Assembly: GCF_037042905.1 (NCBI RefSeq)
Contig: NC_087250.1
Span: forward strand, 28,212,001-28,276,000
Origin: Lytechinus pictus
Lineage: Eukaryota
Length of the DNA stretch: 64,000 nt
Reading direction: 5' to 3'
Under the pieces are notes generated by a model. The model did no database searches, was not told the origin of the DNA, and saw only the letters and a list, made by a program, of their open reading frames with translations. Shown here piece after piece: positions 1 through 30,845 of this stretch; the stretch's first letter is position 1; every line of letters begins with the position of its first letter. The translations under genes and the position numbers were made by a program.

Positions 1-1375
1 CAAAACGGAATACATAAGATGCCTCATAGAAAAAATCGAAAGCGTGATGAAACGAATGCGATGGAGAGCACACTTTAATTCTTTCATACGGGATCATCTA
101 CAGGTGATAACGATGGCGACAGTGATACCGAGGAAGCACTGAAAAACTACGGCCTTCGGTCTAAACGCACACCACCCCAAGTTGAAGAAATGGCGGGTTT
201 TGAGATCGAAGGACATGCTCAGCATGGTGGACACCCTTCAATTCAGGCAAGTGAACAATCAATTTCAATCTAATCTCAATAAAGATAACCACTCTGAAAG
301 TGGAATGCCTCTGGCGGTCTCACCTGCATCACGCGATTCAATATAGCAGCAGTGCTGACTTTGAAAACTACTATAACTCGCACAAGATGTTCTCAGTGAT
401 ACCTGGTTACTCTTATTTCCACGTTTTATGAACTAGACCAATACACTTACATAGGTATGATGGTAATTCAACATATACCCCAACGTGGCCAAAGTTCATT
501 GACCCTAAATGACCTTTGACCTTGATCATGTGACCTGAAACTTGCACAGGATGTTCAATGGTACTTGATTAACCTTATATCTAAGTTTCATAAACTAGGA
601 CCATATACTTTCTAAGTTATGATGTCATTTCAAAAACTTAACCTCAGGTTAAGATTTGATGTTGACGCCGCCGCCGCCGTCGGAAAAGCGGCGCCTATAG
701 TATCACTCTGCTATGCAGGTGAGACAACAAATAAACACTTCTGAGAAGGTATTTGTCCAGGCGGATAAAACCAGAAATATGTATTTGATGAAACCTGAAA
801 AGTACAATAAAGCTACTAACCGATAATATCACTAAAAATATAAGAGAGCAGAACCAGAAGCAACAATAGGAATTCGACAGAATAACTGTGGCCCTTAACA
901 TCCGAGACCAAATAGGCAACACTGCTCATCATCCAGCTTTCATCACCATAAAAGACCATACAGAAAACTTCAGAAACAGCCCAAAAGCCAGACTAATAAA
1001 CCCCACCAAATCCGAACTATGTAAAGTAAGTAAACAGATGCTTGACCGTATAAACAACGACATTAGGAAGAAAACTAAAGAAAACCGGTGGATTACTGGA
1101 TTAGCACTGCGAATGTCATCGAATGGTTTACAAAGTTACCCGATAAAAACACGCTCACTTTTTTGGTCTTCTACATAGTCGACGTCTACCCCTCTATCTC
1201 CCAAGACCTCCTCCTCAAATGATTTAAGTGGGCTGAAAGGTACACCTCTCTCAGTAATATCGAAAAAGACACCATCATGCATGCTAGAAGAACTCTCCTC
1301 TTTGACAACAGCAATGAACCTTGGATAAAAAGGGAGGCACAACGCCAATTCGATGTCTCAATGGGGGCCTACGAC
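1..1375 (+). mobile_element. Penelope-like retroelement, decayed N-terminal/RT part (interrupted by the element at ~296-730)
   Basis: Frameshifted translation gives LIEKIESVMKRMRWRAHF, VFVQADKTRNMY, AFITIKDH..NFRNSPKARLINPTKSEL and FDVSMGAYD, which I recognise as typical PLE RT segments. It ends at ATG GGG GCC TAC GAC (1361-1375). Confidence 0.85.
296..730. mobile_element. Non-autonomous repeat with DINE-1/HINE (Helentron-associated)-like architecture
   Basis: Perfect 13-bp subterminal inverted repeat GTCTCACCTGCAT (317-329)/ATGCAGGTGAGAC (713-725), a (GCC)n tract and a 3' stem-loop. It interrupts the PLE reading frame. A partial second copy lies at ~57878-58040. The family label is inference. 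Confidence 0.6.
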
Positions 1376-1559
1376 AACTGTTAAGGTCTTAAAGTGTTAA
1401 CTACTGCTATCGCGTAACTCGCTCTCTAGCTTATTGAAAATGTGTCCAGTGTGTGCGCGCACTGCCTCTGTGTTTGCCTCTGTGTTGTTTGGGATCGGAT
1501 GCACGCATATATAGGATCCTCTACATGCACAAGCACACGATTGCCTCCTACATGTATGA

Positions 1560-4255
1560 TTTGCTCTTAATGAAAAATATGCTGCACTTTTTTACCAAGT
1601 TACTATATGTCCTAAATTTCTTTTTTATTTGTATTTTTAGAATGGACTTCAAACCAAAAAGGATGAAAAACTTAACCAGAAGCATATAGAGTGGTTTGTG
1701 CGTGAATATTTTACAAATTAGAATAACATGGATTGAAAAAAGTAAAGGCTGGGGCCAGTGGCGTACCGTGGGTCACGGCATTGGGGGGGGCACCTGCAAA
1801 AATTTTGAGTCACTTAGTGAGCGCGCGAAGCGCTCTCAGTTGCCAGGTATACTGACCCAATAGAGACACTGATTTTAAGGACAATGCCATTGAACAGATA
1901 TATGTATCTCACTGGCCAAATAATGCGAGCGCGAAGCGCGAGCTGAAAATTTTTGATATTCAGACCTAATAAGGGACATTATAGTCAAATTTTTGTAATC
2001 ATAATACGTATATCTGTCTCGCTAAACAATGCGAGCGCGAAGCGCGAGCTGAATTTTTTTATATATTGACCCCAAACGGAGATTTTAAGGACTATATTTT
2101 AGGAATCCATTAAGAGTACACCCATCTCACCATAGTCATCTAATGTGAGTGCCAAGCGCTTGCTGAAGTTTGTTGGAATAACATCTAAACACATGAAGCA
2201 CTTTTTGTAGTCATTGTAATCATGATTATCATACGCATCTCATTAATCAAATATTGCGAGCGCGAAGCGCGAGCTGAAAATTTAGATAATTCAGATCAGA
2301 AGTGGGAGCATTCTAAGGCTTGCTTGTAGGAATTCAGACCATACGTATTTCACTAACCAATCGATGCGAGCGCGAAGCGCGAGTCGAAAATTTTTGATAT
2401 TCAGATGAGAAAAAGGGACATTTTAAGGACTGATTTTAGGAATTCATGAAGGGCAGACATATCTCACCAATCCACTAATGCGAACGTAATCACGGACAGG
2501 AAATGTTTTTTTTTATTAAGACCTTAACATGGGGCAATCACTTTAAGCAGTCATGAAAAAGAAGCATATGTCACTACATTAAACAATAACTCGAAGTGCG
2601 AGGAAATATATTTGGTGTATATTGACTTGAAAACGGGGGGTTTTAGTAAAATAGGATTATATATCTCGTTAAGCAGACAATGCGAGCACCAGGAACAATG
2701 AAGACATAGGTCCTGAGCAAATTATGTTTCATAAAGTTATGATAAAAATGTCTGTTATGTAATGTAACATAACATAATTATAATATAGTATAACATTATA
2801 ATGAATAATAATGTCTTCTTTCCTACTACGTTTCTCTTCTTTTCTCCCTCTTTTTCTCCTTATTCTCCTTTTCCCCGTTTTTTTTTTTTTTTTTTTTTTT
2901 TGGTCAGCCGATTGGGGGGGCACGTGCCCCCCCATGCCCCCCCGTAGTTACGCCACTGGCTGGGGCAATGCTTAACATATTTTCATTTGGAGGGGGGGGG
3001 GGCAAAGACATAAGGGAACTTATATTCATCAGGTTATTATATGTCTTGAATTTCTTTTATTCTTATTTTTAGAATGGACTACAAACGAAAAAAAAAGGGA
3101 TAAAAAACTTAACCAGAAGCATATAGAGTGTTTTGTGCGTGAACCGTTACAAATTAGAATAACATGGATTCAAAAAGTAAAAGCTGGGGCGGCGCTTAAC
3201 ATATTTTTATCTGGAGGGGGGGGGGGTAGGCAAAGACAATAAGGGTACTTATATTTACCAGGTTATTATATGTCTAAAATCTCTTTTTTATTTGTATTTT
3301 TAGAATGGACTACAAACCAAAAAAGGAAGAAAAACTTAACCAGAATTAATAGAGTGTTTTGTGCGTGAAATGTTAAAAATTAGAATAACATGGATTTAAA
3401 AAGTAAATCTGGGGCAATGCTTAACATATTTTCATTTGGAAGGGGGGGGAGGCAAAGACCTAAGGGAACTTATATTCATCAGGTTATTATATGTCTTGAA
3501 TTTCTTTTATTTTTAGTTTTAGAATGGACTACAAACGAAAAAAAGGAGAAAAAACTTAACCAGAAGCCTATAGAGTGTTTTGTGCGTGAACATTTTACAA
3601 ATTAGAAAAACATGGATTCAAAAAGTAAATCTGGGGCAATGCTTAACATATTTTCATTTGGAAGGGGGGGGGGAGGCAAAGACCTAAGGGAACTTATATT
3701 CATCAGGTTATTATATGTCTTGAATTTCTTTTATTTTTAGTTTTAGAATGGACTACAAACGAAAAAAAGGAGAAAAAACTTAACCAGAATTAATAGAGTG
3801 TTTTGTGCGTGAAATGTTAAAAATTAGAATAACATGGATTTAAAAAGTAAATCTGGGGCAATGCTTAACATATTTTCATTTGGAAGGGGGGGGGGAGGCA
3901 AAGACCTAAGGGAACTTATATTCATCAGGTTATTATATGTCTTGAATTTCTTTTATTTTTAGTTTTAGAATGGACTACAAACGAAAAAAAGGAGAAAAAA
4001 CTTAACCAGAAGCCTATAGAGTGTTTTGTGCGTGAACATTTTACAAATTAGAAAAACATGGATTCAAAAAGTAAAAGCTGGGGCGGCGCTTAACATATTT
4101 TTATTTGGAGAGGGGGGGGGGTAGGCAAAGACAATAAGGGTACTTATATTCATCAGGTTATTATATGTCTTGAATTTCTTTTATTTTTATTTTTAGAATG
4201 GACTACAAACGAAAAGAAGGAGAAAAAACTTAACCAGAAGCCTATAGAGTGTTTC
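1560..4255. repeat. ~221-225-bp tandem repeat (about 7 units, poly-G in most), interrupted by a hAT-like MITE
   Basis: TTAACATATTTT..GG(G)n..GCAAAGAC recurs at ~2972, 3197, 3421, 3643, 3865 and 4090. A partial first unit lies at 1560-1755. Confidence 0.9.
1756..2958. mobile_element. hAT-like MITE
   Basis: TIR CAGTGGCGTA/TACGCCACTG and perfect 8-bp TSD GCTGGGGC (1748-1755, 2959-2966). Internal GCGAGCGCGAAGCGCGAGC repeats. Confidence 0.9.
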
Positions 4256-6572
4256 TACAATTTCCATAGTTCTCACCATAAAAACATTTTTTTGTCATCT
4301 TATGCATGGGTTTTTACGTTTTGTTTACAAAGGTTTTAAGAGCAATACTATTATATATTTTTTTATTTCAACCGACAATCATGACAATGTTGACTATTTG
4401 AGCATTTTCATTGATGCTTACTTCTACGCAAGACACATTGCTGCAGTAAAAAAAAAAAAAAAAAAAAAATTGTGCCTCTCGAAAGTAGATCAGCCACTGC
4501 TGTCCCTTTCAAAAATATTTTCAACTTCATTAAATTTCATGGGTGATCATCTGTATGTCAATCATGGCGTATTCGGAAGGGGTGTCTCCATCAACCCGTG
4601 TTTTTATTAAAGAAAAAATATTCCAGTTCATTCCATCACATTATTTCAAATATTACTAACAGGAAAAGTACGTATGCACATGAAATACAATCGCCGAAGA
4701 ATCACCATGATTTTAATTTCGTTGACGATTAACATATAAAAATTGAAATAAAAGATTTGAATCTGAAATTGAGCGGGAAAAGCTATATTATCAGCCTCAA
4801 CTTTCATGGGGTGCACGCCTTTCCCCTGTGTACTGCACTTGTACTAATTGGTACCTAGTGCACATATAAAAAAAAACGAAATGACTCATTGAACCATTTC
4901 CCTTCTCAAGCTCTTTCTCTTACTTATTTTCTCCCCCCCCCCCCCCCCAGTTTTAGAACTTTTGAGAATAGAGCCAGAGTCTCTTTCGTTACGCCAGTGG
5001 TTTGAATCATTAATAAACTAATTATTTTTTTCATAATAGTAAACAGAGTAGGATTATACGTTGTAAACGTGGGTATTTATTGCCATGTCAGAGGTGAAAG
5101 TTAGCATTTCAAATAGTAGAAAAACAAATTCTTATTAAGGTGAAAAACTCTTTGGGAAAACTTGTTTATTTGTAAAAGAAGAAAAGCAAGATCTGAAAAG
5201 ACATCGTTCTCTTAGTTTATTCTGATTTTGGCCTCGGAAAATTGTCAGCTCAGCGCATAGTATTTCTCTATAAATTAGCTAAATCGCCGTCTTGGTTAAA
5301 AGATAATTTCAGATTTTTCTCAGTCTTCTCGCGCTCATCTTTTCTCATAGACCGCGGGTCATACATCCAATATAAGCCTCACCTCTTGTATATTCCTATT
5401 TTTTGTCACATTTTAGAGAAAAAAAATTACCGAACATTAATTCATAACTCGTCAGTGTCAAAAGTGCATATTCGTCACATCTTTTCAATTCCACAATACT
5501 TTTACTGTGCTGGTGCTCACACACATTATTCATTATTTACATATATTACCCTAGCCCCTTGTCTATGGCCAAATACACGGTAAGCCCCTGGTTACCTAGC
5601 CCGAGAGCAGCCAAGACTGGCAAGAGCAGGGCTGCGCGGATCCAGGATTTCGTAGGGAGGGGGCCCAAATTCGACCTGATTTTGGCGCCCCTGTGTACTT
5701 TTCGGAAAAATGGCGGCCCCTCCCTCCCCCAGGCAATTATAAGTGCCTTAAATGCATGTTAAATTATCTAATTTCATAGGCACATGAAGAAGAGGCAATT
5801 GAATAATGGTTTTATAATGATGTGTTCATGAATAAATGCAATACCACTTTAAAAAAGAATCAATGCGAGCGCGAAGCGCGAGCGATTTCTATTTCAAACA
5901 TTTGATGCTTTCAATCTCGTTTAAGATCTCATCAGAGCAGGCCCTGCAAGAATTATGTGAGCGGGAGCCAGGCACGGATCCAGGATTTCTTAGGGGCCCC
6001 TAATTTCAAGTCAAGTAATAATCGTGCCAAAATGACTCCCACTGCCGAATGGGTAATGTCTAGTTACTTCACACATAAACCTCTCTTGCATTGTATAGGC
6101 ATACTTCGTTCTTCTGGGTACTCCCATTTTTTTTTCTACTTTTTGTTTCAGGGCTTGAAAAATCTTACGAAATAGATTGCTTGAATCTGTGAAATCATTA
6201 AGTCCAAAATTTTTTTATGCATGTTTGTATTATGTATGTAATAGTAATGGTAATTATACATCAATAGAAATGTTTTGACCTTGTCGGCAAATAATGGCTC
6301 TTTTTTGGGGGGGTGATATTCGGTTGGCAAGCAAAATCCACAGAGTGATGCACGAAATGTTGACGTGCGCACAAAATGTTCCAGTCTTTCTTTTGGTAAA
6401 TATCAAATATCATAGAGTCTATGTCAACTATTGTATGAGAAGGCCCCAAAGCAGGGTATGAAATGCACTGGAACTCAGCTCTAAGGCCGATTTTTTAGCC
6501 TCCCCATATGGACTAGCCGTCAGTCAATTATCCTCACAGGCTGGGGTTCAATGTATAACATACTAACATCAC

Positions 6573-8008
6573 CAACCGCGTAGCCAGGATTGCATTTTCG
6601 AGGAGGCGGTAAATGCACGCGAAGCGTGCCAGTACTTACAAAGCGCGCGAAGCGCGTTCCCTAGGGGGTGGGTGCAGGGAGTTCCCCCCCCCTCCCGCGC
6701 AAAGCGCGAAGCTTTCGGTGTTTCATAAATTAAAATCCAAAGGAGCCGTCTCTCTTGTCTCTAGTACCTATATCAGCCCCAATTCAGTTGACTATATTGT
6801 GATTTTAAACATAGTTTTCAAAAGTGATTGTGAACGCACAAAAAGGGGATAAAACGGAGGAAATTCAAATAATATTAACCCCGTGCGAAGCGCCGAAGCT
6901 AAAGCATTTTATCATTTTTCTGCAAAGAAAAGGGTCCCGAGAAAAAGGGTATTCTCTAATTCACATTGAATACTTTCCTTGGAAAGATCAGATTTGATTA
7001 CAAATAATTTAGCGACAGTGAATATCTTAACTCGCAAAACAGGTGAGAAGAAGGATATCTGCCGAGAGGAAGATATGCCTCTCCGCGCAGAGCAATGAAT
7101 CTCTGAAATTCAAAAAGGCAGACGTTTCAATCAATGCAGATATCTCTAATACCCCCATCGGCTCTAATTAAATTTTTTTTTATAAGATTATTGAACTTCA
7201 TTACAAGGAAAATAGTGTGCAAAAAGTTGAAACTTCTGAGATTTATTGAAATTATATAAAACGGGATGATGTATAATTTCTTTGACTTATCCTGATGCGC
7301 TTCATTTTGAATGAAAAAGAAACTCAAGTGTCATTCGCAATTTCACACTGAGGGCGCAAAAAATGCAGAACATGAGATGAAGTTAAGTAGAAGTTAAGAA
7401 AAATATTGTATTTTTTTATTTGATACGGCACGAATTTTATACCTTCCTCTTTTTAAATTAGGAACCTGTTTGCCCCCATATTATGGTTGTTTAGTATAAA
7501 AATGAGCTGAAAAGCGGGATAATTTGCCTATATTGAGCTGACGGCAGAAAGTGATATAAAGATTTTACCCGCCCGGAGCCGACCCGACCAGAAGTTACGC
7601 GATCAATTAAAAAAAACGATAACTTCATACTTCGGCCTATCCTTACTCTAATTTCATGTCCTAATGTATATTTGAACTTTAACTGGCAAGAAACACATAT
7701 AGCTGAGGTGGAAAAATAGAGTTATATAAAAAGGGTGAGGGAAACAAAGGAGAACTGCAATAATTATTGTCATTAAACGCGCGCAGCGCGGAAGCAAAAT
7801 TCATATATTTAAATTTAGAGCAAGAGTGAAGAAGTTTCTTCTTTGAGAAAAAAAAGAATAAAAAGAAAGTCCACAAAGCTACCTTTCTTCCCTTTCCTTC
7901 CTTCGCTTTTCCTTTTCTCCTCTTTTTTTCTCCTTTTTTTTTCTTTTTGGGGACGTTGGGGGGGGGGGGGGGGGGACCGTCCCCACCGCCCCCCTGGCTA
8001 CGCGCCTG
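6573..8008. mobile_element. hAT-like MITE
   Basis: TIR CAACCGCGTAGCCAGG/CCTGGCTACGCGCCTG; 8-bp TSD AACATCAC/GACATCAC (1 mismatch). Confidence 0.8.
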
Positions 8009-8127: not shown

Positions 8128-8458
8128 ATTTTTTTTTGTTTTGTAATAGTATTTATCAAAGTCATTCAGTTCACAATCATACAAGTAATATAATATCAAC
8201 AAAACACTGTTCACAAAGTCAAATAAATAATTATTCATAATACAAAAAATTATACGTACAAAAAAAATACAGAATATAACATTCGAGTTATCTAGAACAA
8301 AGTACTAGTAAATACTTAGTCTGTAGAAAGAAAGAAAAAAAAAACAGACATAACACCAAAAAATGTATAGCAACGCAATTGAACTGAATGAGTAAAGAAG
8401 TAAAACACCCTCCCATCCCACTGCCCCCCCCCTCCATATCCCATCTAAGCCCAGCCCA
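8128..8458 (-). mobile_element. Probable distal 3' UTR and poly(A) tail of the L1/Tx1 LINE, separated from its body by the 13.4-kb element
   Basis: The minus strand ends ...ATAAATACTATTACAAAACAAAAAAAAA. The C-rich + strand composition continues across the CA target duplication into 21896 onward. Confidence 0.5.
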
Positions 8459-11400
8459 CCCTTACAAAAAATTCCTGCAGTACTTTAGTGGTACTCTGTT
8501 GTACCTGTGTGATACTTCTGTCATACACGACGGTACCGCAGAATTACCACAGGACTTCTGTGGTATCACTCTGTGATAGTTCTGTCATACTTCTGTGGTA
8601 CATGAAAATATGAAAATTTCCTGCAATACCTTAATGGTACTCTGTCGTACCTGTGTGATATTTATGTTGTACAAAACTGTATACAGAATTACGACAGGAC
8701 TTCTGCGGTATCACTCTGTGATAGTTCTGTCATACTTCTGTGGTACATGAAAATATGAAAATTTCATGCAATACCTTAATGGTACTCTGTCGTACCTGTG
8801 TGATACTTCTGTTGTACATAACTGTATACAATATCACTCTGTGATAGTTATGTCGTACTTCTGTTGTACATGAAAATTCTAAAATATCCTGCAGTACTTC
8901 TATGACAACCCTGCGATACTTCTGTTGTATATGAACATTTTTTTAATTTCCTGCAGTACTCCTATTACTACGCACTTCTATGGAAACCCTGTGATACTTC
9001 TGTGGTAAATGAAAATTTTGAAATTTCCTGCAGGACTCAATATAGGCACTTCTAAAATTCTATGGCAACCCCAGTGCTATACTTTCAAAATTTCCTGCGG
9101 TACTTCTCATGCAGCCACCCCAGAAATATGACTGAAACTGTATCACAGACGTTATGGTGTATTTTCTGTGGTACATGAAAAATTTAGTTTCCTTCAGTAC
9201 TTGCATGGAAGCCCTGTTTGTACCACAGACTAAATTTTTGTTATTTCCAGTGAAGGATTTATCTTTTTTCTTCAGTTTCGGGAGAGGTCAGTAGCGTATT
9301 GAGTCTTATATTTTTAGAAGGCCATTTGGCTTAAAAGGGCACCATTCATTTTAAAAAGTAAAATTTTTTATATGAAAAATTGTGACATATAGGCCCTATT
9401 TGAAAATTATATTTCACCCTGTCCCATTGTGTAGGTCTATATCAGCGAGGGGGGGTTATGCCTACTGAGACTCAGAGGTTTTAAGTTTGATAGCTTCTAT
9501 TTCTACGAGAAAGGGTACTATACGTACTAGATCAAAACTAGGAGCAAAGCGCGAACTGAAAAATTCGAAAAATTATTGACCCCAAAATGGGCAACTTATA
9601 TTTTGAGGACTCTTGTTCGTTTTCAGGGTTATTTCTTTTTCATGCGCTCTTTTAAATTTCAATTATCATTTGTTTTGTTTGTTCGCCACTTATTTTTCAT
9701 AAAAAACAGGATGAATAATAAAAAAATTGACTACATTTAAAAGGGTACGTGTTGAAATATACAGGACACACCTAACACCCTTAGAGCTTAATGGTTGTGA
9801 GGAAGCCGGGTTGAATTTCAAAGAGATATTGTAATGAATAAAAACATAAGCATGAACGTATTATTCTACTTCATCCATCTCTTTCTAACAATACAAGAAA
9901 ATAATTGAAGGGGAGGTCAAGGCTAGAGATAATCAATAAATAAAGTAAAATTCACAGAGCAAAATGCTTAAAATTTATTCAAAATCGGATGACAAATAAC
10001 GAAGTTAAGTTGAATTTTAAGGATTTGCAATATTCCCATGAAACAGTTTTATTTAGGCATGTCTCATGAATATTCAATAGGTGGGCTGATGATGTCATAT
10101 CCCATGTTCTTTTGTACCTTATATGAAATTAGGTTTATTCAACATATTTCTACCAAGAACTGAAACAATTGGAATGACAACTGATTAACCGCATTAGTTA
10201 TTTAATGCAGCAACTTCATTACAATGGAGACACATTATTTACACATGTATTGAAAAAATTAGATAATCATAATTTCATATCTAACATTAAAAAAGGAAAA
10301 TAGGAATGTCACATCATCAGCCCACCAAATGAATATTCATGACGATGTGCACACTATCTGTTTTCACAAAATATTGATAAACAATTAACATAAGAAAGTT
10401 CAGCGTTGAATGTTGATTAAAAAATAAATCTCAGTTAAAATGCTATCTAAGATTTTGTTTTAAATGTTTGATAACCAAGTTTTAATGCGATACTGGCCCC
10501 TTGAAGTTTTTATTGCGAGAAAATACATTTTTCCAAGTTTCCCATCTATTTTTTTTTTTTTTTTTTTTTTTGTAAAAAGGACCTATTTTCTTACAAATAT
10601 ATTTTTACAAATAAAATTACTTCAATATTTGTTCTCCTATTCACAATATTTTTTTCTATTTTACAGGTGGAATAGGATAAACTAAAAATAGGATATTTAA
10701 TTTCTATTTTAAGGCCTTTTTTTTTTTTTGCTTTATATCCCCGGTTTATATCTTTGCAACCTTGCAATATGTTAGCCAGGCTGGTTTATATTTATTTCTT
10801 TTTAAATCAAATAAATTTGTATATTTTCAATCTATTTTTATGATGCGAGGCTATATATAGTTTGTAAATATGTTTTTTAATTGCAAGAACAATCTTGTAT
10901 CTCTGTTCACATATGATGGCAGTTTATTTTGCTTCTTTTTTCTAATTTGTATGAAGTTTGTATCTATATATTTTCAAACTATTTTCCATCCTTAAAGTGT
11001 CACGACCGATGTCATATTATTTTTTTACCTCGTTGGCAAAGTTATTATCTTTTCTTATGTTTCGCTTCAAAATGGTATCTTTATATTTGCTTGTCTTGCT
11101 CCTCCACCCCTTATCAAAATACCCTGCCGGCACTTGATCTAAGATTATTTTCTTTTACTACTTGAACCTTATAAAGGGGTCTTTCCTTCGATCGCAAGAA
11201 AGGATAAAATGTGTGTTTTTGAAAATAACTAAAATGAAAAATACATAGGATTGGAGCTGTGATTTTCCTCATTGATTTCTTTGTCATCCTACTTGCATAC
11301 TAGTAGGCCTGTAAGGCTATATAACATATTTTCAGTAAAAGCCCTGGTTTTAAATTGTGAGACATGTTTTTAAATCCTATCCTTATATTAAAAAAAAAAA

Positions 11401-11584
11401 GAATTAATAAAGAGAAAGAAAAAATTAAAAGACATAGAAAAGAAAAAGAAAGGAAGAAGAAATAGATATTTGAATTTTACTTATTCAATTACTTTACGTT
11501 AATAATATGATATATATGATGGCGAAAATAGTCAAATTGTCTGGTTGCCAAGTAAAAAGTAAGACCCCCCCCCCTCCCCGTACA

Positions 11585-11700
11585 AACGCACGGACTGCGG
11601 CTAACTAGTAATTTGCACGCGTGTACGTGTATATATGTTTCCGGTTCCGCCATTTGAAAAAAAAAACGTTCGTAACTGCTCAGCTGGACCTGAAGCTTGA
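11585..11700 (+). promoter_or_regulatory. Putative promoter/TSS region inside the CACTA-type element
   Basis: CpG-rich stretch (11585-12040) with ETS-like TTTCCGG and YY1-like CCGCCATTTG (11647-11656), followed by an exon-like segment ending in a perfect GTAAGT donor at 11795. Confidence 0.45.
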
Positions 11701-11794
11701 TGAAGAAGGCCGTCAATATTTCAACAAAAACTAACAGAATATGGATCAGATTCGGACAACGACTTCTTAAGACATTCACACAACAGGCTAAACA
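11700..11794 (+). other. Putative first exon (MKKAVNISTKTNRIWIRFGQRLLKTFTQQAK, phase-2 donor); parent transcript unknown
   Basis: ATG at 11700, open for 31 codons + 2 nt, then CA|GTAAGT. Confidence 0.4.
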
Positions 11795-12052
11795 GTAAGT
11801 TAGATCCATTTTTCGTAGTTTGGCGCGGCATGCACTTAAATTTCTTCGACTTTTTAATCATTACCGTACGGCCACTGCACTGCCGTTGTTCCCGATCGCT
11901 TAACGGGTGGGGGCTGATCTGCGGTGTGCGCGGCCGGGGACGGCCAACGGCTGGCTAGTATTGATGGCGGCGGCGCGGTGAGGATGTTTGTATCGTTATG
12001 ATTGTAGCCAGGTCAGGGGTGGCCTGGAGGCGTTTGGGGAGTGAAAGTAATA

Positions 12053-18808: not shown

Positions 18809-19254
18809 GTTGTATGAAAATTTTCAAAAATAATGAAAGGTAAAAGAAAACAGAATTACAATGTCCATTGCAAGGGGGCTAGTCTATTCAGGATAATTGG
18901 GATTTTATTCAGTTTTTAATTGACATAACATTATGACAAGATCCCTCCATTTAGTGTATAAACAGCACATGGCCATGATTGAAATTCATATAACATTAAA
19001 GTATGCAAACCAGGCAGCTACATGTACATGTAGGACTCACTGCTTGTCAATTCTATTGTCTGCCAGGGTCAAGTGACATACAGTGCACATGTATAACGTG
19101 TGTGAAAGTACATAAGAAAATCAGCTTTTTATTTTTGTATTGTAACATTGGGTGAACTGGTGATCACTTTGGATATGATGCTCTTCATATTGGTTTATTT
19201 TATGTATATGAATTTTTGGATAATCATTAAGAATTAAAGCTATTTACTTAATAT

Positions 19255-19726
19255 ATGGAAGCATAAGCCCATCAAAAAAACAGAATTGTGTCATGTACAG
19301 CTAATTCATTTTGCGTGATATTACAATTGTAATTGTTTACTTGAGCAAGTAATTTGAATTGCTGCATGACCTAAACAATGACATGTTCCAATTCGAATAG
19401 TAACATGACCTAAAGAAGAGTTACTCCACGTCGATTGAGAGTGCTTATGTTAAATAATTGATGTTGCTACTTCAAATAATTGAGGTCAATCAAATTGGTC
19501 ATAATTATTCAAGTCAATTTTGAGCTATATGTCATAATTAATTAGGTCATATGCTAATTGAAATTACTAAATGACTCGAGTAGGTATGAATTCACGTTGC
19601 CACATGACCTTAATTATTTTATGTAGCAACATCAAGTATTGAACGTCATTTAGTTATCAATTATGACATGTAGCAAATCAAATTACATGCCGCAATTTCG
19701 TGTTTATGATGGGCTCATGCTTACAT
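19255..19726. mobile_element. MITE
   Basis: TIR AAGCATAAGCCCATCA/TGATGGGCTCATGCTT. Confidence 0.7.
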
Positions 19727-20211
19727 TCATATATAACCCTTCAATACGTAGTTGGAGCAATTCTTAGACAAGAAGACTGTGTAAAACAATGATATGCCTA
19801 TTCAATGTCAAAAAGGTTAATGTCTCAATAGATTTGATCTACGTTTTGGCAAAGTAATCTTATGTTCATATTTTTTCTAACCTATGGTGAACATTCTAAA
19901 TCATGTGAAATTCATTCAAAAATATCTTTCAGTATTTATGGACTTAAGTGAATTCTGAGCAAAATGAAGTGATTATGATTACGTTCATGTACTTTAAGTT
20001 TATACTGGTGATCAACACATCATAATTTCATCCCTTACTGTATGTGCACCATGCATTATCTGTACATGCAGAAGTGGTTATCCATTGTTTCATAACATGG
20101 TTGAGTAAAGGATGTTCTGCTTTTAGAATTAAGCCAATCGGGTGTTGACAAGAAGGGGAAAATGCAATTGCTCAGCTATTACAGGTTTTTTTTGCAACCA
20201 TAATACTGGTT

Positions 20212-20386
20212 AAGCCTTGGTTACATTCACCGGCTCGTGGCCTTACGTCGAGTCAAAATTAGCAGTTTTAATCATCCTTGTACCAGCTACTACCAGCTAC
20301 ACGTGGGTGGTTTGTACAGGAATACCTAAAACTGCTGATTTTGTCTCGCCGTAAGGCAACCGGTCAAGGAATGTGACCAAGGTATT
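20212..20386. mobile_element. Short palindromic MITE (related copies at 50270-50404, ~58698, ~63982)
   Basis: Ends CCTTGGTTACATTC/GAATGTGACCAAGG with inner CCTTACG/CGTAAGG. Confidence 0.65.
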
Positions 20387-21895
20387 AATAATAATCGCTT
20401 AATGTGTGTTAGAGGGAAGGATTCTGGGTCGAATCTAGCTTTCTTTATGTGATCTCAAAATGGCAGCAATGTATGAATAGTGAAAGTAGTTTATGTGGCA
20501 TCTCAATATTGGTGGATATAAATCTTTGTACATGTATTATCCTAAAGATGAAATGTTACTGCATTATTCTAGCAGTCATTTATGATATCAAAGATGTTCT
20601 ATACTGTGCATAGTACAACTCATACATAATAAAGGTATGTGAATATGCTTTTAACGTCTTTGCAAATTTGTGGGTTTTTTCACCCCTCTTTTCATTAGTC
20701 AAGATGACAAAGTTGTTGTGCTGGATCAAAGGAAATTCTTACAAACTACTACGCCTAGCAAACCAGTGCAGGACGGTGTCGTGAGAAAATCGCACAGACT
20801 ACTACAGGACAATACCATAGGATTGTCACAGGAAATCAACAAGAATACCCCTGCAGGATTACCACAGTAAAGTATCACAAGAAGGCTGCAGGATGAGACC
20901 AATAATGCCACAGAAGATATCAAAGAACAGTATCACAGGAATACCACAGGACAGTACTGCAGGAATTGTCCTGCGGTAAGGTCTCTTTGTATTCCTGCAG
21001 TACTGTCCTGTAGTACTGTTCTGTAGTACTTTCCTGTGATACTGGTCTGCGGAATTCCTAAAGTACTGTCCTGTCATACTGTCCTGTGATACTATTTATC
21101 ACCACAGGATAGTATCACAGGACAGTACTACAGGAATACCAGACCAGTATCACAGGACAGTACTACAGGAATACCAGACCAGTATCACAGGACAGTACTA
21201 CAGGAATACCAGACCAGTATCACAGGACAGTACTGCAGGACACAGTACCAGAAGCCTGCGGTATTCCTGCAGTACTGTCCTGTAGTACTGTTCTGTAGTA
21301 CTTTCCTGTGATACTGGTCTGCGGAATTCCTAAAGTACTGTCCTGTCATACTGTCCTGTGATACTATTTATCACCACAGGATAGTATCACAGGACAGTAC
21401 TACAGTAATACCAGACCAGTATCACAGGACAGTACTACAGGAATACCAGACCAGTATCACAGGACAGTACTACAGGACACAGTACCAGAAGCCTGCGTTA
21501 CTCCTGTAGTACTGTCCTGCGATACTGTCCTGTAGTACTTCCCTGTGATACTGGTCTGCGGAATTCCTGTAGTACTGTCCTGTCATACTGTCCTGTCATA
21601 CTATCATGTGATACTATCCTGTGATATTCCTGTGATACTGTCCTGTAGTACTAGTAGTAGTGTGGTAGTGGTTGTAGCGGTTGTAGCGGTTGTGGTGATC
21701 GTGTCCTGTCATACTTCCTGCCATACTTATGCGGTTATTACCACAGGAAGTATCACATGACACGGACCTGTTGTACTCCTGTTGTACATTTCTGTAGTAC
21801 CGTCCCAAATTACGTGCACGTAATTCCTGCTGTACTTTCCTGCGATACTTCCTGCAGTACATATCACAGAGTACTACAGGAATTTTTTGTAAGGG

Positions 21896-24800
21896 CAGGA
21901 AGCGCGGCCTGCTTCCCTCCCCATAACCTAGCTACCATTCATTTCGATCTGCATTCTGTGCCGCAACCATGATCTTACTTGTGCACCTAAATCCTCACTC
22001 CGAATGCAAAGAGACACTCCGGCCCCCAATCACACCCCTCCCAGAGATAGATAAAGAGACCAGTCACTCCAGAAGCGGAATCTACATCACAGAGAGCGCA
22101 CCATAGCTCCCACTGGAGCGAACAGCGTATATTTATTTTATATATGATTTTTTTTTTTTTCACTCCTGAAGTAACCACAATGCACCCAAAATATACAAAG
22201 CCCACCCCAAAATGACCGCCCCGATCCACTCCAAGAAGAGTGCAACAGTAGGGACCAGACCATCTCCCTCGCATTTAGAGTGTTTAACAACTGTATGCTT
22301 GAACTTTCTTAGCCCCAGCATCTCTAGAAAATAAACTTGTCCCATTTTCTGAAATGGTTTGTTAATAGACCTCTCTGTTCAGCTAGTTTTCTTTCTTCTA
22401 GTCTTTCTTCTTGTATTTTTTCCTTAATATGGTTAAGGGTCGGTGGATCTTTTGTGTTTCTACTATTCTTTAAAATCATATACTTTATTAGGATTATTAT
22501 ATGATTTAATAATTGAGCCTCTCCTTTAGTTGAACATTCCACGCCTACGTGTACACCTTTTTTATCTATATTTTTAATGATAGGGAGTTGAAGCATGTTC
22601 CCACATTCTTTCCATATAGTTTTTATCTTATCACATGAAAAAAAAAATGATCATATGTTTCTTCTTCTTTACTGCAGAATGAACATAAATTATCTGTTGC
22701 CAATTAAAATAAATATAAATGTTTTTTTGTGTATAGTATAATGTGTAATATTTTATATTGAAATTCTCTGAGTCTACTATTCAGAGTCGATTTTCGTGGT
22801 CTTAGAAAAATTTCAGAAATATCTTTTTTTGTTATATTTTATTTTTCCTCAAGCTTTTTAAATGCTTGGGGTATATCCGATTTCATACTTACAAACGTAT
22901 CATATATAATTTTTGATGTGATGTCTTGCAAGTCAAAAATCCTGCCCTTTAATTGAAAATCCAAAACTAACTCACTATCTATGGAACTTTGACCCTCTTT
23001 TTTTCAGCGAGTCCTTCCAAAAGTATGGAATATAATTAAAGATTTCGAGTATCTTTTCTATTTCAAAACGATCCAAACCCATTTTTTGAAAGGTCGAAAT
23101 AGACTTCATTTTCCCATCTTTATCTACAATATGATGGAGTTTATAAATTTTCTTCAAAAACAGCTTTTCATTATAATATGTTTGTCCTTTCAAACGGATG
23201 AACCTATTATTGAAAATGATCTCATTTCTTTTATTCTTCTCTTCTTTTTAAGTAAAAACAATTTCTTATTAAACCATACATCTAACATTTCTGTATAAAA
23301 TTCAGGGAGTTCAAATCCTATCAAATTCATTGTAAGGTTACTAAAAAAAATTAGCAATCCTCCCATACCGTGTGCTAAGTATCTAAAATATTGTTTCCAT
23401 TTAATTTTTGGCTCTCCCATTATAAGTCTTTTAATCCACATAATTCTTTGTGTCTTAATGAATAACTGAAAATCTGTCATTTTTAGACCAGCATGATCAT
23501 AATCTAAATACACAATGTCTCTTTTAATTTTATCTTTACCATCCCATAAAAATCCAAAGATCAATGTATTAAGATCCTCTATTACCCATGTCGGGATAAT
23601 GGTAAGAGAAGAAATGTATATCAATTTAGATAGTACAAATGTTTTAATTAACTGAATTTTGCCCATTAATGTCAAATCCCTTTGCTTCCACCACATCAAA
23701 AAAAAATGTATTCTACTAAGTATTTCTTTGTAATTTATTCTTATTTGACTTTCTCTATCTAATGAAAAATATATACCCAAGATCCTAACCATTTGCTCCA
23801 CTTTACCAAAAGGTAAAATTTGATCTATTTGTTCATGGTGTCCCAGTAACATAATAAAGGTTTTATCTTTATTCATCCTCAAACCTGACGTTTCGGCAAA
23901 ACATTCGAACAGCATATCTAACTTTTCAATGGACTGAGTGTCTTTTACAAAAATTGTCATATCATCTGCGTATAGAATTTGCTTAACTTCTGTATTTCCA
24001 AACTTAATTCCGTGAATTTCCGGATCAAGTATTATTCTGTTAGCCAATATTTCAATACATAAAATAAAGAGATAGGGGGATAACGGATCTCCTTGTCTTA
24101 CCCCTCTCCCTATATCAAAGTAACCTGTTGAAATACTGCCATTAAAAACACAACTTTCAGCTTTTTTATACAAAGAACTTATCCATTTACAAAATGAGGG
24201 TCCAAAACCAAAAGTTTGCAATACTTTAAATAAAAAACAATGTGAAACCGAATCAAATGCCTTTTCAAAATCAATGGCCAATAGATATGCCGATATATCA
24301 TTTTTTACTGAGTGAAAAATCATGTCATCTATAAGTCTAATAGCTTCCCCAATATTCCTTCCTTTTAAATATCCTACTTGGTCGACATTGATTATTTCAT
24401 GCAACACCTCCTTTATTCTTGTTGATAGTACCTTCGCCAAAATCTTGTAGTCTACATTTAACAGTGAGATGGGCCGATAATTTTTAATATATAATGGATC
24501 CTTTCCTTCTTTATGAATTAAAGTAATAATTGCTTGTCTTTGTGATGGCGAATGTTCTCCTCTTATAAAAGCATTATTTAAAGCATCAACTAAAACATCC
24601 CCAAACAGCGGCCAGAACACTAAATAAAATTCTACGCTAAGCCCGTCATTACCCGGTGATTTATTTAACTTCATCCCTTTTAAGGCAGCTAAACATTCAC
24701 CTTCCGTAATTTTCCCTTCACATGATTTCATCGATTCGTCTGATAATTTTGTTACATCGGAGAAAAAATCATCATCAAGGATTGTATCATCTCTCTTTGC

Positions 24801-26390
24801 ATATAACATGCTATAAAAATTCCTTATTTCATTTTTTATTTCCTTTTGATCAAAAGTTATTCTATCTCTTATTGATAATTTACGTATATTTGTTTTCTTT
24901 TTGTTGGATTCCATTAACTGAGTGAAGTACCTGGTATCCCTTTCCCCACTTTCATAAAAAGAAGCTCTCGATCTAATTTTAAGACCTTCGCTCACATAAT
25001 CATAACATGCCTTTAATTCTGTCTTTTTATTCTCTAATAAATCGATTGATTGTTTATTCATATTTGTTATTAATCTCGTTTGAATACCATCAATTTCTTT
25101 TTGTAAATCTTTGATTTTCTCTCTTCGTTTTTTAGCCTTTTCCTTTGAATATTTCCGAGAAAAATTGCTGATTTTCATTTTCAAGAAATCCCAAAAAATT
25201 ATCTTATCTTTGATTCTTCTTTAAAAGTTTCTTTCAAATTGATAATATCGTCTTTCATTTGTCGAGTAAAATCACCGTCTGTACACAGACTATTGTAAAA
25301 TTTTCAATAAGTGCCTTTAGATGTTTGAATTGACTGAGAGGGTTTATCAAAGAGTTGAAATACAACCGCCGAGTGATCTGGCGCTATAGACGGTATTATA
25401 TCACATGTTAAAACATATTCTCTAAAACTTTCTGTAATAAACCAATAATCTAACCTGCTTTGCATAAAGGGGTTAGTTTGTCTAAAAGTATACTGTCTCT
25501 TAACGCCATTAATTTCCCTCCAAATATCAACTAAATTTAAATCACACACAAAATTATCAAAGTTCTTCTGGAAAGAAGACTGAAACTGTCTTGTATTATT
25601 TATCATGTAGTCTAAGTCAATATTCCTTACTAAATTAAAATCTCCCCCTATAATAAGAGGAACACCTCGATCATGTTTTTCTTTTAAAACTATATTCAAA
25701 TTGTGTAAGACTGTGTTTCGCTCCATGTTATGACCTTGAACAGGGAAGTACACATTAACTAACACTAACTTTATATCTTGTAAAATGCATTCCATAATTA
25801 TAAACCTTCCGTTTTCGTCAGTCTTTGTGTCCAGAATCTGGATGCCTAACTTGGAGTTGATTAGTACACTGACCCCCCGACTATGACATGTACCGTTACT
25901 ATAGTATACGTTTCCATTCCACCCAGAACCCCATACTTCTTCGACTTCCCTTGTACTAAAAGTTTCTTGCAAGAAAACTACGTCTGCTTTCTTATCCTTC
26001 AACCAAGTAAAAATTATTTCTCTTTTTAACTTATCTCTTAAACCTTTCACATTCCAAGAAAGAGAACTGCAATTAACAGATAAACGATCCAAATCCATTA
26101 AGAAAAAAAAAATGAATGACAGATATTATATACCTCAAACTATTCTAGAGATGCTGAGACGAAGCTTGTTTCTAAAAGAGCCCTTTGAGTAGGGTTTTGA
26201 AAGATTATGTATACAAGAGAGATAAAAAAACGCACAGATGTAGAGACTGATGCGTGACGCGCTCCACCCCCTCCCTTCCCGTTCATTTCTTAAAGTCTTC
26301 CTCCCCCCCCCCCAAAAAAAAGCTCATAAACTAAGGCACCTGTCTGTCTTTGTATAATTTGACAAAGCATTAAATAAGAAGAAAAGTTAT
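21896..26390 (-). mobile_element. 5'-truncated L1/Tx1-clade non-LTR retrotransposon
   Basis: APE endonuclease, RT and a C-terminal Cys/His segment on the minus strand. A possible last fragment of ORF1 (VKLYKDRQVP*) lies at ~26330-26365. The 5' boundary is approximate. Confidence 0.85.
22324..26098 (-). pseudogene. LINE ORF2 (endonuclease-reverse transcriptase), disrupted
   Basis: EN motifs SWNVKGL, FLQET, GGDFN, SRLDYW, PDHSAV (25304-26098). RT motifs KSPGNDG, NYRPISLLNVDYKIL, IDFEKAFDSV, GVRQGDPLSPYLF, LYADD (23190-25184). Premature TGA at 25304 in the YW-KF motif and several frameshifts. CSFC..C segment near 22630-22690. Confidence 0.93.
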
Positions 26391-26722: not shown

Positions 26723-27900
26723 CAGTGGCGTACCGTGAATCACCAGCAACATTTTTGAATCACTGAGTGAGCGCGCTGAGTTGCTAGTTATTCTGACCTA
26801 ATAGAGACATTTTAAGGACAATGTCATTAAACGGATATGTATCTCACTGATCAAATAATGCGAGCGCGAAGCGCGAGCTGACTTTTTTTATTTACACCTA
26901 AAAAGGGACATTGTAATCAAATTTGTGTAATCATGACAGGTACCTGTCTCGCTAAACATTGCGAGTGCGAAGCGCGAGCTGAAGTTTTCGTATATTTTGA
27001 CCCCAAACAGCGAGATTTTGAGGAATATATTTTAGGAATCCATTATGAGTATGGATATCACACCATAGCCATCTAATGCGAGTGCCAAGCGCTTGCTGAT
27101 TTTATTAGAATTACATCTGAACACATGAAACACTTTTTGTAGTCATTGCAATTATGATCATCATACGCATCTCACTAATCAAATATTGCGAGCGCGAAGC
27201 GCGAGCTGAAAATTTAGATAATTCAGATCAGAAGTGGGAGCATTCTAAGGCTTGCTTGTAGGAATTCAGACCATACGTATTTCACTAACCAATCGATGCG
27301 AGCGCGAAGCGCGAGTCGAAAATTTTTGATATTCAGATGAGAAAAAGGGACATTTTAAGGACTGATTTTAGGAATTCATGAAGGGCAGACATATCTCACC
27401 AATCCACTAATGCGAACGTAATCACGGACAGGAAATGTTTCATATATACGAAGATCTTAACATAGGGCAATCACTTTTTGAGTCATGAAAAAGAAGCATA
27501 TGTCACTACATAAAACAATGATAACTCAAGTGCTAGGAAAAATATTTGGTTTATATTGACTTAAAAACGGGATGTTTTAGTACACAGGTGGGTGTTTCAT
27601 AAAGCTGTTCGCAAGTTAAGAGCAACTTTAAGAGCGACTGGTGAACCTTTTTTGCATGCTAAATAATCACCAATGAACATTTAATTGTGAATATCATTTA
27701 CCACAAGAAAGGGTCACCAGTCGCTCTTAACTTACGAGCAGCTTTATGAAACGGCCCCCAGGATTATGTACTGTATCTCGTTAAACAGACAATGCGAGCA
27801 CCGGAACAAAGAAGACGTAGGCCCTAGGCAAAATGTGTTTCATAAAATTATGATAAAATTTTTTTATCATGTAATGTAATGTAACATAACATAATTGTTA
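26723..27900. mobile_element. Second copy of the hAT-like MITE at 1756-2958 (3' end lost), containing a small MITE at ~27590-27758
   Basis: Starts CAGTGGCGTACCGTG; ~27175-27440 is nearly identical to ~2245-2510. Inner element GGTGTTTCATAAAGCTG..CAGCTTTATGAAACGGCC. Confidence 0.85.
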
Positions 27901-28002
27901 ACATTTGTAACCTATGCAATTATAGGTATATGGCTTAAAAAGAATGCAACTTGTATAACTTATACTAGTTTCATTCTTTTTAAGCTATAGGCTACCCATA
28001 CA

Positions 28003-28443
28003 CAATTTCAGCGCCCCCTAGTTCTAACATCGATTTGGCGCCCCTAGTTCGAACATTCAATCGGCACCCCCCCCCCCCCGATGTCGAACATAAATTTTGC
28101 GCCCCTACGTCGAACATCAAGTCGGCACAACCCCCCCCCCCCCCCCCTACGTCGAACATCTATTTGGCCTCCCTAGGTCGAACATCAATTTGTCTCCCCC
28201 AAGTTGGAACATCATTTCGGCGCCCTCCTAGTTCGAATATCAATTCGGCGCCCCTACATGCAGGTCCAACATCAATTTGGCGCCCCTGGTTAGAATATCA
28301 TTTCGCCCCCCCCCCCCCCCCATAACTCGAGTATCAATTTGGCGCCCCCTAGTTTGAACATCAATATAGCGCCCCTACGTCGAGCATCAATTCGCCCCCC
28401 CCCCCCCGTTCGAACATCAAATCGGCCCCCAGTTTGAACATCA
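28003..28443. repeat. ~27-35-bp minisatellite (GGCGCCCC(C)nTAGTTCGAACATCAATT)
   Basis: About 14 degenerate units read directly. Confidence 0.85.
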
Positions 28444-28446
28444 TTG

Positions 28447-29209
28447 TCTTTCCTCCTCTTCCTCTTTTTTTCCTCTCGTGCTTCCCCCTGTTCCTTTCCT
28501 TTTTTTCATTCCCCCTTTCTCGCTCTTTTCTTCTCTTCTTTCTTCCCTCTTCCTCTCTCTCTCTCTTTCTCTCTTTTCTCCTTTTCCTTTCCCCCCTCTT
28601 CCTTTTTTCTCCCCCCTCCCCTCCCTTTCCCCTCTTCCTCTTTTTTCTCCCCTCCCCCTCCCATTTCTTCTCTTCCTTCCCCCTCTTCCTCTTTTTTTTT
28701 CTCTTTCTTTCCCCTCTTCTCCTTTTCTTTCCCCTCTTCTTTTCTTTTCCCTCTCTTTTTTCTCTTTCCTCCCTCTTCCTCTCCTTTTTTCTCTCTTTCT
28801 TCCCCCTCTCCCCTCCCTTTTCTTCTCTTCCTCTATCTCCTTTTCTTTCCTCTTTTTCTCTCTCTCTCTTTCCCCTCTCTCTCTCTTTTTTATCCTTTTC
28901 CTTTCCCTCTCTTTTTCCTTCTCTTTCTTTCCCCCTTTTCCTTCCCTTCCTTTCCCCTCTTCCCTTTTTCTTCTTCCTTCCCCTTCTTCCTCTCTCTTTT
29001 CCCCTCTCTCTCTCTCTTTTCTTCTTTCCTCCTTTTTCCTCTCTCTTTTTTCTCCTTTTCCTTTCCCCCTCTCCCCTCTCTCCTTTCCTCTTTTCTTCCC
29101 CCTTTTCCTCTCTCTTTTTCCTTCCCTTCTCCCCCCTCTTCCTTTTTTCTTTTTTCTTCTTTTCTTTCCCCTCTTTTTTCTCTTTCTTTCCCTCTCTTCT
29201 TTTTTTTTT
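28447..29209. repeat. ~760-bp polypyrimidine/polypurine low-complexity tract
   Basis: Almost only C/T on the + strand. It adjoins a MITE-type terminus (..GGTCCGCGCCTG, 29264). Confidence 0.95.
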
Positions 29210-29534
29210 GGTCGAAGGGGGGGGGGGGGGCAAGGCCCCCTCGGCCCCCCATGGTCCGCGCCTGCATGGGCAAGAGTATTCAATGCAATTACATACGAAT
29301 ATCGAATGAAATGCGTTAGACCATAGATTGTATAAATTCACGCGCCGAATTATATTACATAAACTGAAATTGTATTATTCTTTCTGTGGAATATTGATGT
29401 AGTACCGTCGTGGTACTGTGTACAACTGAACTGAAGTGATTTTCTCGCACAAACTCCCCATTCAGTGCGCGCGCGTACGTTATAATTGCAATGGAACACT
29501 TTATGGCGAACTTACCCGGCGAGTTACACGTTAA

Positions 29535-30128
29535 AGGGGAATCCAACCCATATAAAAACTTGTTTTTATAAGGAAAAGAAAAATCAGACAAGTTGATAGG
29601 TGAAAGTTTGAACAATATTGGACAAACAACAAGAAAGTTATAAATTTTTAAAAGTTGTAAATATTGGTAATCACTATACCCATGGAGACTTCAAATTGGC
29701 CGCATATGGGATGGCATAGCGATGTAAGGCAAGGACTACTCTTCCATGTACTCCAATACATATTATGGCTAAAATGTCATTTTGCCCAAAAGTTTTATTT
29801 CAAATTATATTTTTCTTTCATGAGGACATAAAACAATATACTACCTGGGTTATATTTAGATTACTGCCCCAGGGGAATGGGTACTTGGGGGAAAACCACA
29901 AATCCCTGATAATAAAGTACATGGCCTATGGGAAAGTTGTCCTTGCCCCTTGTCATAATTTACTTACCCAGTTGCCAATTTGAAATCTACATAGTATTAG
30001 TGATCTCAATTTTAAAGCAGCTATAACTTTCTTATTGCTTGACCGATTTCTTCCAAACTTTCACCATTCTGTTAAATTTTTTTTCTCCTTCCCAACACAA
30101 CATTTTATGGCCAAGGCTGGATTCCCCT
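29535..30128. mobile_element. TTAA-targeting MITE (Kolobok-like)
   Basis: TTAA|AGGGGAATCCA..TGGATTCCCCT|TTAA, with RR/YY termini and TTAA TSD. Confidence 0.85.
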
Positions 30129-30152
30129 TTAAGCTCGAGTCGCTTTTAAGAC

Positions 30153-30845
30153 GGGGCCGAAATCTGCAAACTTGTTTGGCATAACTATGCCCTATCGCAG
30201 TTGGAAACCAAATACATTGTCGGTCTGTACAGGGACGATGGACTGGCTACTTTAAGACGCACCTCAGGCAGCATGCAGGGCCGACAGAGATAGAAAAACA
30301 CTCATCAAAGTCTTCCAAGAACTCGGGCTGAGAATAACAGTGCAAACCAATCTGAAACGGGTAGACTACCTAGATGTAACCTTAGATCTCGAGAATAACT
30401 CCTACCAACCCTTCAGAAAACCCAACGACACCCGATGTGTGAACGCCAACTCCAACCATCCCCCTACCAATCACTAAGCAAATTCCCACATCAGTACAAG
30501 CAAGAATCTCATCCCTATCTTCAAATGAAGAAAAAATTAAGACCGCAGCACCGGTATACAACGAAGCCCTGAGTAACAGCGGTTACCATGGTGACATCAA
30601 ATTCGCCAAAAGCCAAAAGTCCAACAAAACCAGGAAAAAACGCCATGGAAAAGTCACGTGGTTATACCCTACAGCAGTAATGTCAAAACCAACATCACAA
30701 TTAGCTATATACAGCTGCATGAAAAACGTAAATTCGATCATCAAATCACACAACGAAAAAGTCATCAGAAAATCAAAAGAAAAAGAGAACCCTAGCTGCG
30801 GAAAAAAACATGAAACTGCCGAGGGAAGGAAGACTGCCCTCTACG
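30153..30845 (+). mobile_element. Penelope-like retroelement, remainder of RT/thumb and Cys linker
   Basis: GAEICKLV, VGLYRDDGLA (catalytic YRDD), VDYLDVTLDL, PFRKPND, NSNHPP and NCRGKEDCPL. Frameshifted; the GIY-YIG domain is not seen. Confidence 0.85.

Follow-up and report, generated by a model that had tools for sequence, protein, structure and literature searches.

Penelope-like retroelements of one described type combine a reverse transcriptase (RT) with a C-terminal GIY-YIG region (PMC8557442). Among the DNA elements with which a large and irregular insertion can be compared, as characterised in the papers cited, Ginger1 and Ginger2 are 2.6-7 kb long, begin and end with TGTNR, have inverted ends of 40-270 bp, make a 4-bp CCGG/CCGT or AT-rich target duplication and can carry introns (PMC2836005), and IS3EU/GingerRoot elements have TA..TA or TG..CA termini and a 6-bp duplication (PMC10045372). 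The rolling-circle Helentron/HINE group (HLE2) is described with subterminal inverted repeats of 11-17 nt (PMC11417382), animal CryptonA elements without terminal inverted repeats (PMC3212892), and Starships as large cargo elements with asymmetric inverted ends, known from filamentous fungi only (PMC13465315). In the 64,000-nucleotide stretch of Lytechinus pictus DNA analysed here (NCBI RefSeq assembly GCF_037042905.1, contig NC_087250.1, positions 28,212,001 to 28,276,000, forward strand; hereafter the window), a dead Penelope-like element is split by an insert of 28,774 nt. Each superfamily tested against this insert failed in a defining feature, and the outer element was therefore left without a superfamily.

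By direct reading, the peptide MGAYD is encoded at 1361-1375 and DGAEIC at 30150-30167, both on the forward strand, and GAC stands at either edge of the insert (1373-1375 and 30150-30152), just as a sequence-only reading of the window had reported. In order to examine the further claim that one Penelope-like element had been split at one codon, 24 related proteins were fetched and aligned to the window with tblastn. For 15 of them the left match stopped at 1372-1381 and the right match began at 30150-30153, with the same or the next residue. The remaining nine comprised one with a right match only, five with a left match only and three that resumed further in. No related protein (0 of 24) matched inside the insert. 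Since the relative P0008 aligned from window position 8 to 30802, it was a nearly full-length Penelope element that was split; it is collinear with relatives of 690-735 aa, and no residue was lost or gained across the junction. A chance meeting of two unrelated Penelope fragments was rejected on the strength of these alignments across the junction.

The split element consists of a decayed N-terminal coding piece (8-286, forward strand; P0008 residues 15-111 in tblastn), a left half of the RT ending in MGAYD (731-1375, forward strand) and a right half with GAEIC, a YRDD motif and the thumb (30153-30850, forward strand), the two halves being delimited by protein alignment. The right half stops approximately where the endonuclease would start. 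The relatives align as far as about 30850, short of the C-terminal part that the full-length ones possess and where a GIY-YIG endonuclease would lie. The copy is dead, with stops, frameshifts and two insertions. The motifs MGxYDGAE and YRDD are presumably Penelope-type, and the Penelope label is taken from these motifs, because the relatives are unnamed and the five that were scanned matched no Pfam family. The second, separate insertion lies inside the left half at 287-730 (444 nt), where P0008 resumes with residue 115 at 731. It holds a GCC microsatellite and a 12-bp inverted pair (318-329 and 713-724), has a related copy at 57853-58030, and by resemblance may be a Helentron/HINE-like repeat.

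Contigs from one public run confirmed the uninterrupted form that the sequence-only reading had expected of intact Penelope copies. At least two contigs of run X10, in which the left half is matched at approximately 90-96% identity, followed the left half to 1375 and then continued with GGGGCC into intact RT sequence, thus indicating that the empty site of the family carries a single GAC. These bridging contigs may be paralogues. The 3-bp GAC overlap at the insert may be a short duplication, a microhomology or a crossover core. A Kolobok-type or piggyBac outer element was rejected, as the empty Penelope site contains no TTAA; only a nested element in the right end, described below, fits that class.

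The ends of the insert had been described as imperfect inverted repeats, and three short motifs were indeed found inverted and in collinear order at both ends. The outer motif GTCTTAAA lies at 1386-1393 (forward) and 30145-30152 (reverse), the middle motif G(C/T)GTAACTCGC at 1412-1422 (forward) and 29519-29529 (reverse), and the inner motif GCGCGCACTG at 1455-1464 (forward) and 29463-29472 (reverse). What that description had missed is that the right repeat is interrupted by a miniature inverted-repeat transposable element (MITE) of 594 nt (29535-30128), which has AGGGG...CCCCT ends and sits between two TTAA, a signature described as Kolobok-type (PMC9587614). Because it sits inside the right end, this MITE came after the outer element had formed. 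With the MITE removed, the paired motifs are at matching distances from both junctions, and the outer and middle motifs start 28 and 27 nt apart while the intervening bases differ. Such conserved spacing between variable bases would be expected of binding sites.

The pairing was evaluated against shuffled and unrelated sequence. In the 64 kb, GCGCGCACTG occurs at two sites, which are the insert ends, and none of 100 shuffles reached two. The middle 11-mer, with one mismatch or fewer allowed, was found in the same two places only, and 4 of 100 shuffles reached two. The outer motif is frequent on its own, with 9 sites in the window. A plain local alignment of the ends after removal of the MITE gave a weak result, with a score of 38; 8 of 2000 shuffles scored as high, as did 3 of the 2990 random windows. 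The collinear chain of exact motifs amounted to 27 nt, compared to a maximum of 22 in 12,772 other windows of 110 nt; this result requires the removal of the MITE, a step chosen after the sequence had been seen. No extended inverted similarity of the two ends emerged from self-comparison, and hairpins at the two tips were no better than in shuffles (z 0.01 to 0.79). The chain is strong support for the view that the two insert ends belong together.

The left terminal module (1379-1474) starts with TGTTA. The right end is made up of an inner module (29265-29534), which is CpG-rich with an observed/expected ratio (o/e) of 1.76, and an outer tip (30133-30152) in which the outermost 7 bp of the left end have no mirrored equivalent. 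Searches for the end motifs gave 0 matches in viral contigs. Metagenome contigs gave 93 exact 16-mer matches to the end, which were regarded as chance because none extends beyond 22 nt. A literature search for the motifs returned only subjects unrelated by title, and the supplements of PMC4067079 contained none of them. It is possible that Repbase or Dfam already lists the family.

The left end forms the terminus of a high-copy repeat, as supported by public-run contigs over 860-1760, 112 from run X10 and 9 from run X5, the run type of which is unstated. In run X10 the summed depth rose from 34-180 over the Penelope half to 899 at 1387-1417 and to 9090 and 7781 at 1418-1479, and was approximately 2000-2600 at 1542-1603; summed depth is not copy number and is taken here only to mean highly repeated. 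In one X5 contig (record 9), 30 unrelated letters are followed by the left end from 1379, with 5 differences over about 257 positions (98% identical), and the match continues into the first unit of the 222-bp satellite at another locus. The seven bases TGTTAAG (1379-1385) therefore belong to the insert end. Ten extra nucleotides at the left junction had been called unexplained; these seven recur in another copy and about three, AAC, remain unexplained. AAC (1376-1378) is neither Penelope nor clearly insert end, as the other copy differs before 1379 and another X5 contig (record 8) starts at 1378. Other copies have T at position 1413, and with this letter all 11 bp of the middle motif match the right end in inverted orientation.

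Since record 9 reaches the satellite, the 222-bp tandem array belongs to the element family. In the window this array has approximately 6.5 units, spans 1591-4254 in self-comparison and is interrupted by a nested element. Tandem arrays had been claimed near both ends, and the left array stands as part of the family. The right array has a period of 26-27 bp (28015-28401), lies about 1.7 kb inside the insert and is not mirrored by a similar array on the left. As a feature of the outer element's end, it was rejected by its position and by self-comparison. The terminus as a whole is an abundant urchin repeat end which falls outside the end and target rules of the superfamilies compared, and it is worth curating. 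Run X1 contained 0.48 of the insert-interior words, the largest share of any run, and yet gave no contig on 860-1760, even for the highly repeated end, which may be a filter effect or a real difference; run X23 gave none either, and neither result counts as a test. No RNA run was among those listed as containing the sequence. Run word shares of 0.33-0.48 for 11000-20780 can stem from the many MITEs there and were not used as evidence.

The explanation we favour, which we regard as about evenly poised between right and wrong, is one non-autonomous DNA transposon whose inverted ends had degenerated, mobilised by an enzyme acting in trans and later swollen by nesting. The starting element would have been approximately 7-10 kb long. 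Its ends, about 90 bp in length, would have kept of their inverted symmetry the three motifs, likely sites of transposase binding and cleavage, and the 222-bp satellite would have been carried behind the left one. A cut-and-paste enzyme, presumably of the DDE type and supplied in trans, would have moved both ends and the backbone between them together. The target would have been the TACGAC|GGGGCC site of the dead Penelope-like element. The joins on the two sides are untidy, with the right tip, 7 bp shorter, joining the target at the GAC overlap and AAC left over on the left. The insertion probably came first and the swelling later, when hAT-like elements, MITEs and a long interspersed nuclear element (LINE) would have piled in to give 28.8 kb. 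The process is ordinary; the element at the heart of it is unnamed and oddly ended.

Several observations weigh against this explanation. At least one X5 and at least six X10 contigs leave the left module at 1407-1414 with mixed flanks, and at least ten X10 and at least one X5 contigs leave it at 1474 into different sequence, so that the module is common to several subfamilies and need not mark the 28.8-kb unit alone. The left boundary is based on one other flank, from the nine contigs of run X5, and copies at other loci are known for the left end only. The ends are asymmetric, the right one being 7 bp shorter, and the overlap is only 3 bp with AAC left over, a combination that matches no target-duplication rule of Ginger, IS3EU or Kolobok as given in the papers compared. 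The CpG pattern of the backbone is like that of a host gene and no transposase remnant was found, both of which are considered below. Some nested elements may already have been aboard before arrival at this site.

The divergence of the two Penelope halves is a further point against it. The right half was identical to the bridging contigs at 25 of 30 positions, with one extra base (by eye), and the left half at 82 of 85 (Fisher p 0.028). When the same right-half divergence was compared with the pooled left-half divergence of 7.9%, p was 0.085. Protein identities of the left and right halves with four close relatives were 62/60, 57/65, 57/63 and 69/63%, showing no consistent gap. We read the two halves as one copy, recombination between copies being the other possibility.

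Compared to Ginger1 and Ginger2, the insert has a left terminus, TGTTA, that fits TGTNR, and inverted ends within the reported size range (PMC2836005). However, its right tip, 7 bp short, has no closing ACA, so that TGTNR is not present at both termini; only GAC is shared in place of a 4-bp duplication; and its 28.8 kb is far from the described lengths, with ends that match in three motifs only. No Gypsy-like integrase was found by Pfam, at its cut-off, among 274 open reading frames (ORFs), which a non-autonomous copy would lack anyway. The junctions do not fit IS3EU/GingerRoot either (PMC10045372). Tetris-type foldback elements are likewise large and non-coding, and in them a tandem array of about 220 bp comes after a modular end (PMC7492417), but in the insert the array is on one side only, and neither long mirror arms nor a 9-bp duplication is present.

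The left module and its array also bear on a rolling-circle origin, in which the insert would be a Helentron/HINE element of the HLE2 type, with GTGTAACTCGC as the subterminal inverted repeat, the 222-bp array as the central repeat and the backbone captured by read-through. We consider this distinctly unlikely. The 11-bp inverted pair (1412-1422 and 29519-29529), perfect in other copies, falls within the 11-17 nt described for such repeats (PMC11417382). As in the accounts of HINE, DINE-1 and Cg_HINE, a tandem array stands behind the left module, copy number is high and there is no clean target duplication (PMC4067079, PMC7492417); oyster Cg_HINE shows the same succession of left module, microsatellite-like tract and tandem array (PMC7492417). 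The contigs that leave the module at 1407-1414 do so 2-7 nt outside the 11-bp motif, which also agrees with such a repeat. On the other hand, the motif is located 25-35 nt inside both junctions, while the 5' one is expected 0-4 nt from the end (PMC4067079, PMC3627910). The insertion site is TACGAC|GGGGCC and not T|T, there is no significant 3' stem-loop, the tip hairpins being at shuffle level, and the two further inverted motifs are unexpected. No remnant of a Rep/helicase was found by the Pfam and motif scans.

The GAC overlap and the leftover AAC could alternatively be products of a tyrosine recombinase. A Crypton-, DIRS- or Starship-like element would excise as a circle and recombine through a GAC core, and AAC would be a coupling remnant of the previous site. 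This too seems rather improbable to us. A short direct repeat at the junctions, as microhomology, together with short asymmetric inverted ends is known in such elements (PMC13465315, PMC3212892), and by direct reading, joining the insert ends would bring two inverted 8-bp copies to either side of a 10-bp spacer. The one other flank has AC five bases before the terminus, a weak agreement expected about 1 time in 16 by chance and noticed afterwards. But the 3-bp core and 10-bp spacer differ from the 4-6-bp repeats and 6-8-bp spacers described, and the inverted motifs differ from animal Cryptons, which are reported without terminal repeats (PMC3212892). No copy of the circle junction (ICR), as in DIRS1-like elements, was found in the window, where no non-self match reached 18/26 and the best, 15/20, was outside the insert. 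Neither a tyrosine recombinase motif nor a Pfam match to one was detected, and no Starship captain was found near either insert end by the Pfam and motif scans, the Pfam scan having covered ORFs of at least 36 aa outside masked repeats.

A stronger form of this idea, which we regard as very improbable, is an animal counterpart of the fungal Starships. It would be a large cargo family with short asymmetric inverted ends, a 3-bp core, coupling bases from the previous site, an intron-rich transcription unit and a recombinase that acts in trans or is fragmented into exons. If paired copies, a variable coupling remnant of a few bases and a carried gene were to bear this out, this would point to recombinase-driven cargo elements in animals, whereas the papers compared describe them only for fungi.

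The absence of a visible transposase, already remarked by the sequence-only reading, persisted in the searches made here. The Pfam scan covered 274 ORFs of at least 36 aa outside six masked repeat blocks, leaving out the masked ORFs, except three LINE ORFs, and 92 ORFs of 30-35 aa. None matched at the cut-off; the strongest scores were weak (E 0.014-0.042), all under the cut-off. No transposase, recombinase or Rep was found by Pfam or by the motif scan of the backbone, which turned up generic strings of the HxH type and a single CxxC cluster (14233), nothing specific. The backbone contains 25 ORFs of at least 60 aa against a shuffle mean of 11.8, but the longest measures 128 aa, and the 95% range of the shuffles extends to 135. 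For ORF 11492-11857 (reverse strand), the Atlas matches of 0.75-0.76 were only at chance level. A crude splice-site scan gave four candidates, none convincing, and Rfam over 1-33000 gave 0 matches.

In invertebrates, methylation of gene bodies leaves an established pattern of a CpG-rich promoter followed by a CpG-depleted body. The backbone shows a CpG-island-like, promoter-like stretch at 11481-12089 (forward strand; GC 0.47, CpG o/e 1.21), with a function that is predicted only, and a CpG-depleted part at 16415-20769 (forward strand; o/e 0.09-0.46). In the first, we take a motif near 11640 to be YY1/ETS-like and a GTAAGT near 11795 to be donor-like. The depleted part contains exon-like pieces at 16569-16691, 17051-17140 and about 20700-20770 (forward strand), for which no homologue was found. 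The piece at 16569 had none by word search or among 1.84 billion representatives, and no usable Atlas match. An intron-rich IDH-type gene 3' of the insert, which we take to be IDH1, has a CpG o/e of 1.08 and then 0.41-0.64. Because an island followed by a depleted body is also seen in IDH1, the backbone pattern suggests a present or former transcription unit. What lies at 11481-12089 and 16415-20769 is possibly a non-coding or a decayed gene.

This likeness to a host gene counts in favour of another origin, in which two related transposon ends surround a host segment, promoter plus methylated gene body, that moved as a composite. Alternatively, the repair of a break would have copied the block in, with the GAC microhomology serving for the join, and two different Penelope copies may have recombined in the process. 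We find such an origin unlikely, albeit worth weighing. The o/e values of 1.21 and 0.09-0.46 parallel the 1.08 and 0.41 of IDH1, the ends are alike in motifs only, and the left module is common to families that diverge after 1474. Filler bases and microhomology are typical of repair joins, and the AAC filler and GAC overlap would fit them; the right Penelope half is also slightly more diverged from the bridging contigs. In contrast, no Penelope residue was lost or gained at the junction, the paired motifs lie at corresponding distances from the two junctions, and the protein identities show no consistent left-right difference. Furthermore, none of the Pfam, word, representative and Atlas searches of the backbone identified a host protein.

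The claim of nested insertions was supported, in that they account for the greater part of the insert. Nested repeats and arrays make up 20,867 of the 28,774 nt (72%), a hand-curated tally with some approximate limits that includes the element's own 222-bp array, and the non-repeat remainder is 7.3-7.9 kb. Four nested elements have 8-bp target duplications, three of them perfect, and one has TTAA. The four are hAT-like: a non-autonomous element with CAGTGG ends at 1756-2958 (duplication GCTGGGGC), and others at 6573-8008 (one mismatch), 15356-16406 (perfect, GTTTTCAT) and 17850-18808 (perfect, GTTGTATG). A frameshifted LINE at 22324-26125 (reverse strand) encodes an AP endonuclease and a reverse transcriptase (Pfam Exo_endo_phos, E 5e-16; RVT_1, E 5e-39). 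The block at 26723-29264 combines an incomplete copy of the element at 1756-2958 with a MITE, with the 26-27-bp array and with a CT tract that terminates in a hAT-like end; no matching target duplication was found for it. The partial copy (26741-27582) is 88% identical to 1756-2958 over 865 nt, and together with 61780-62330 these form a related trio of hAT-like non-autonomous elements with internal units of approximately 110 bp carrying GCGAGCGCGAAGCGCGAGC.

Other repeats in the insert include arrays of related 13-bp-like units at 8440-9230 and 20770-21900, each adjoining LINE-like sequence, the second with inverted blocks. A foldback MITE at 14281-14954, with a possible 9-bp duplication, interrupts a short frame (14190-14280 and 14964-15050) that follows an acceptor-like site and contains the Cys cluster (14233). 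At 4430-4470 (reverse strand), a long poly-T tract, CTGCAG and GTAAGC 19 nt further on resemble a micro-exon.

The likely IDH1 start codon, assigned from the IDH-type exons, is at 31991-31993 (forward strand), outside the insert and 1.84 kb downstream of the right junction. The locus is thus a clean natural record of 29 kb building up beside a housekeeping promoter, by a single insertion into a dead retroelement and then nested layers. Further along the window, a 54-bp minisatellite of about 105 copies with a 218-bp higher-order unit occupies 43577-49309. Its unit is the end of an IDH1 exon with the splice donor, and it yields a 421-aa repeat ORF at 47981-49246. A local duplication of approximately 600 nt relates 54679-55275 to 58722-59712 at 92-96% identity, one copy being interrupted. 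At 62345-63174 lies a near-palindrome of 830 nt, which is 79% self-complementary and resembles a foldback MITE.

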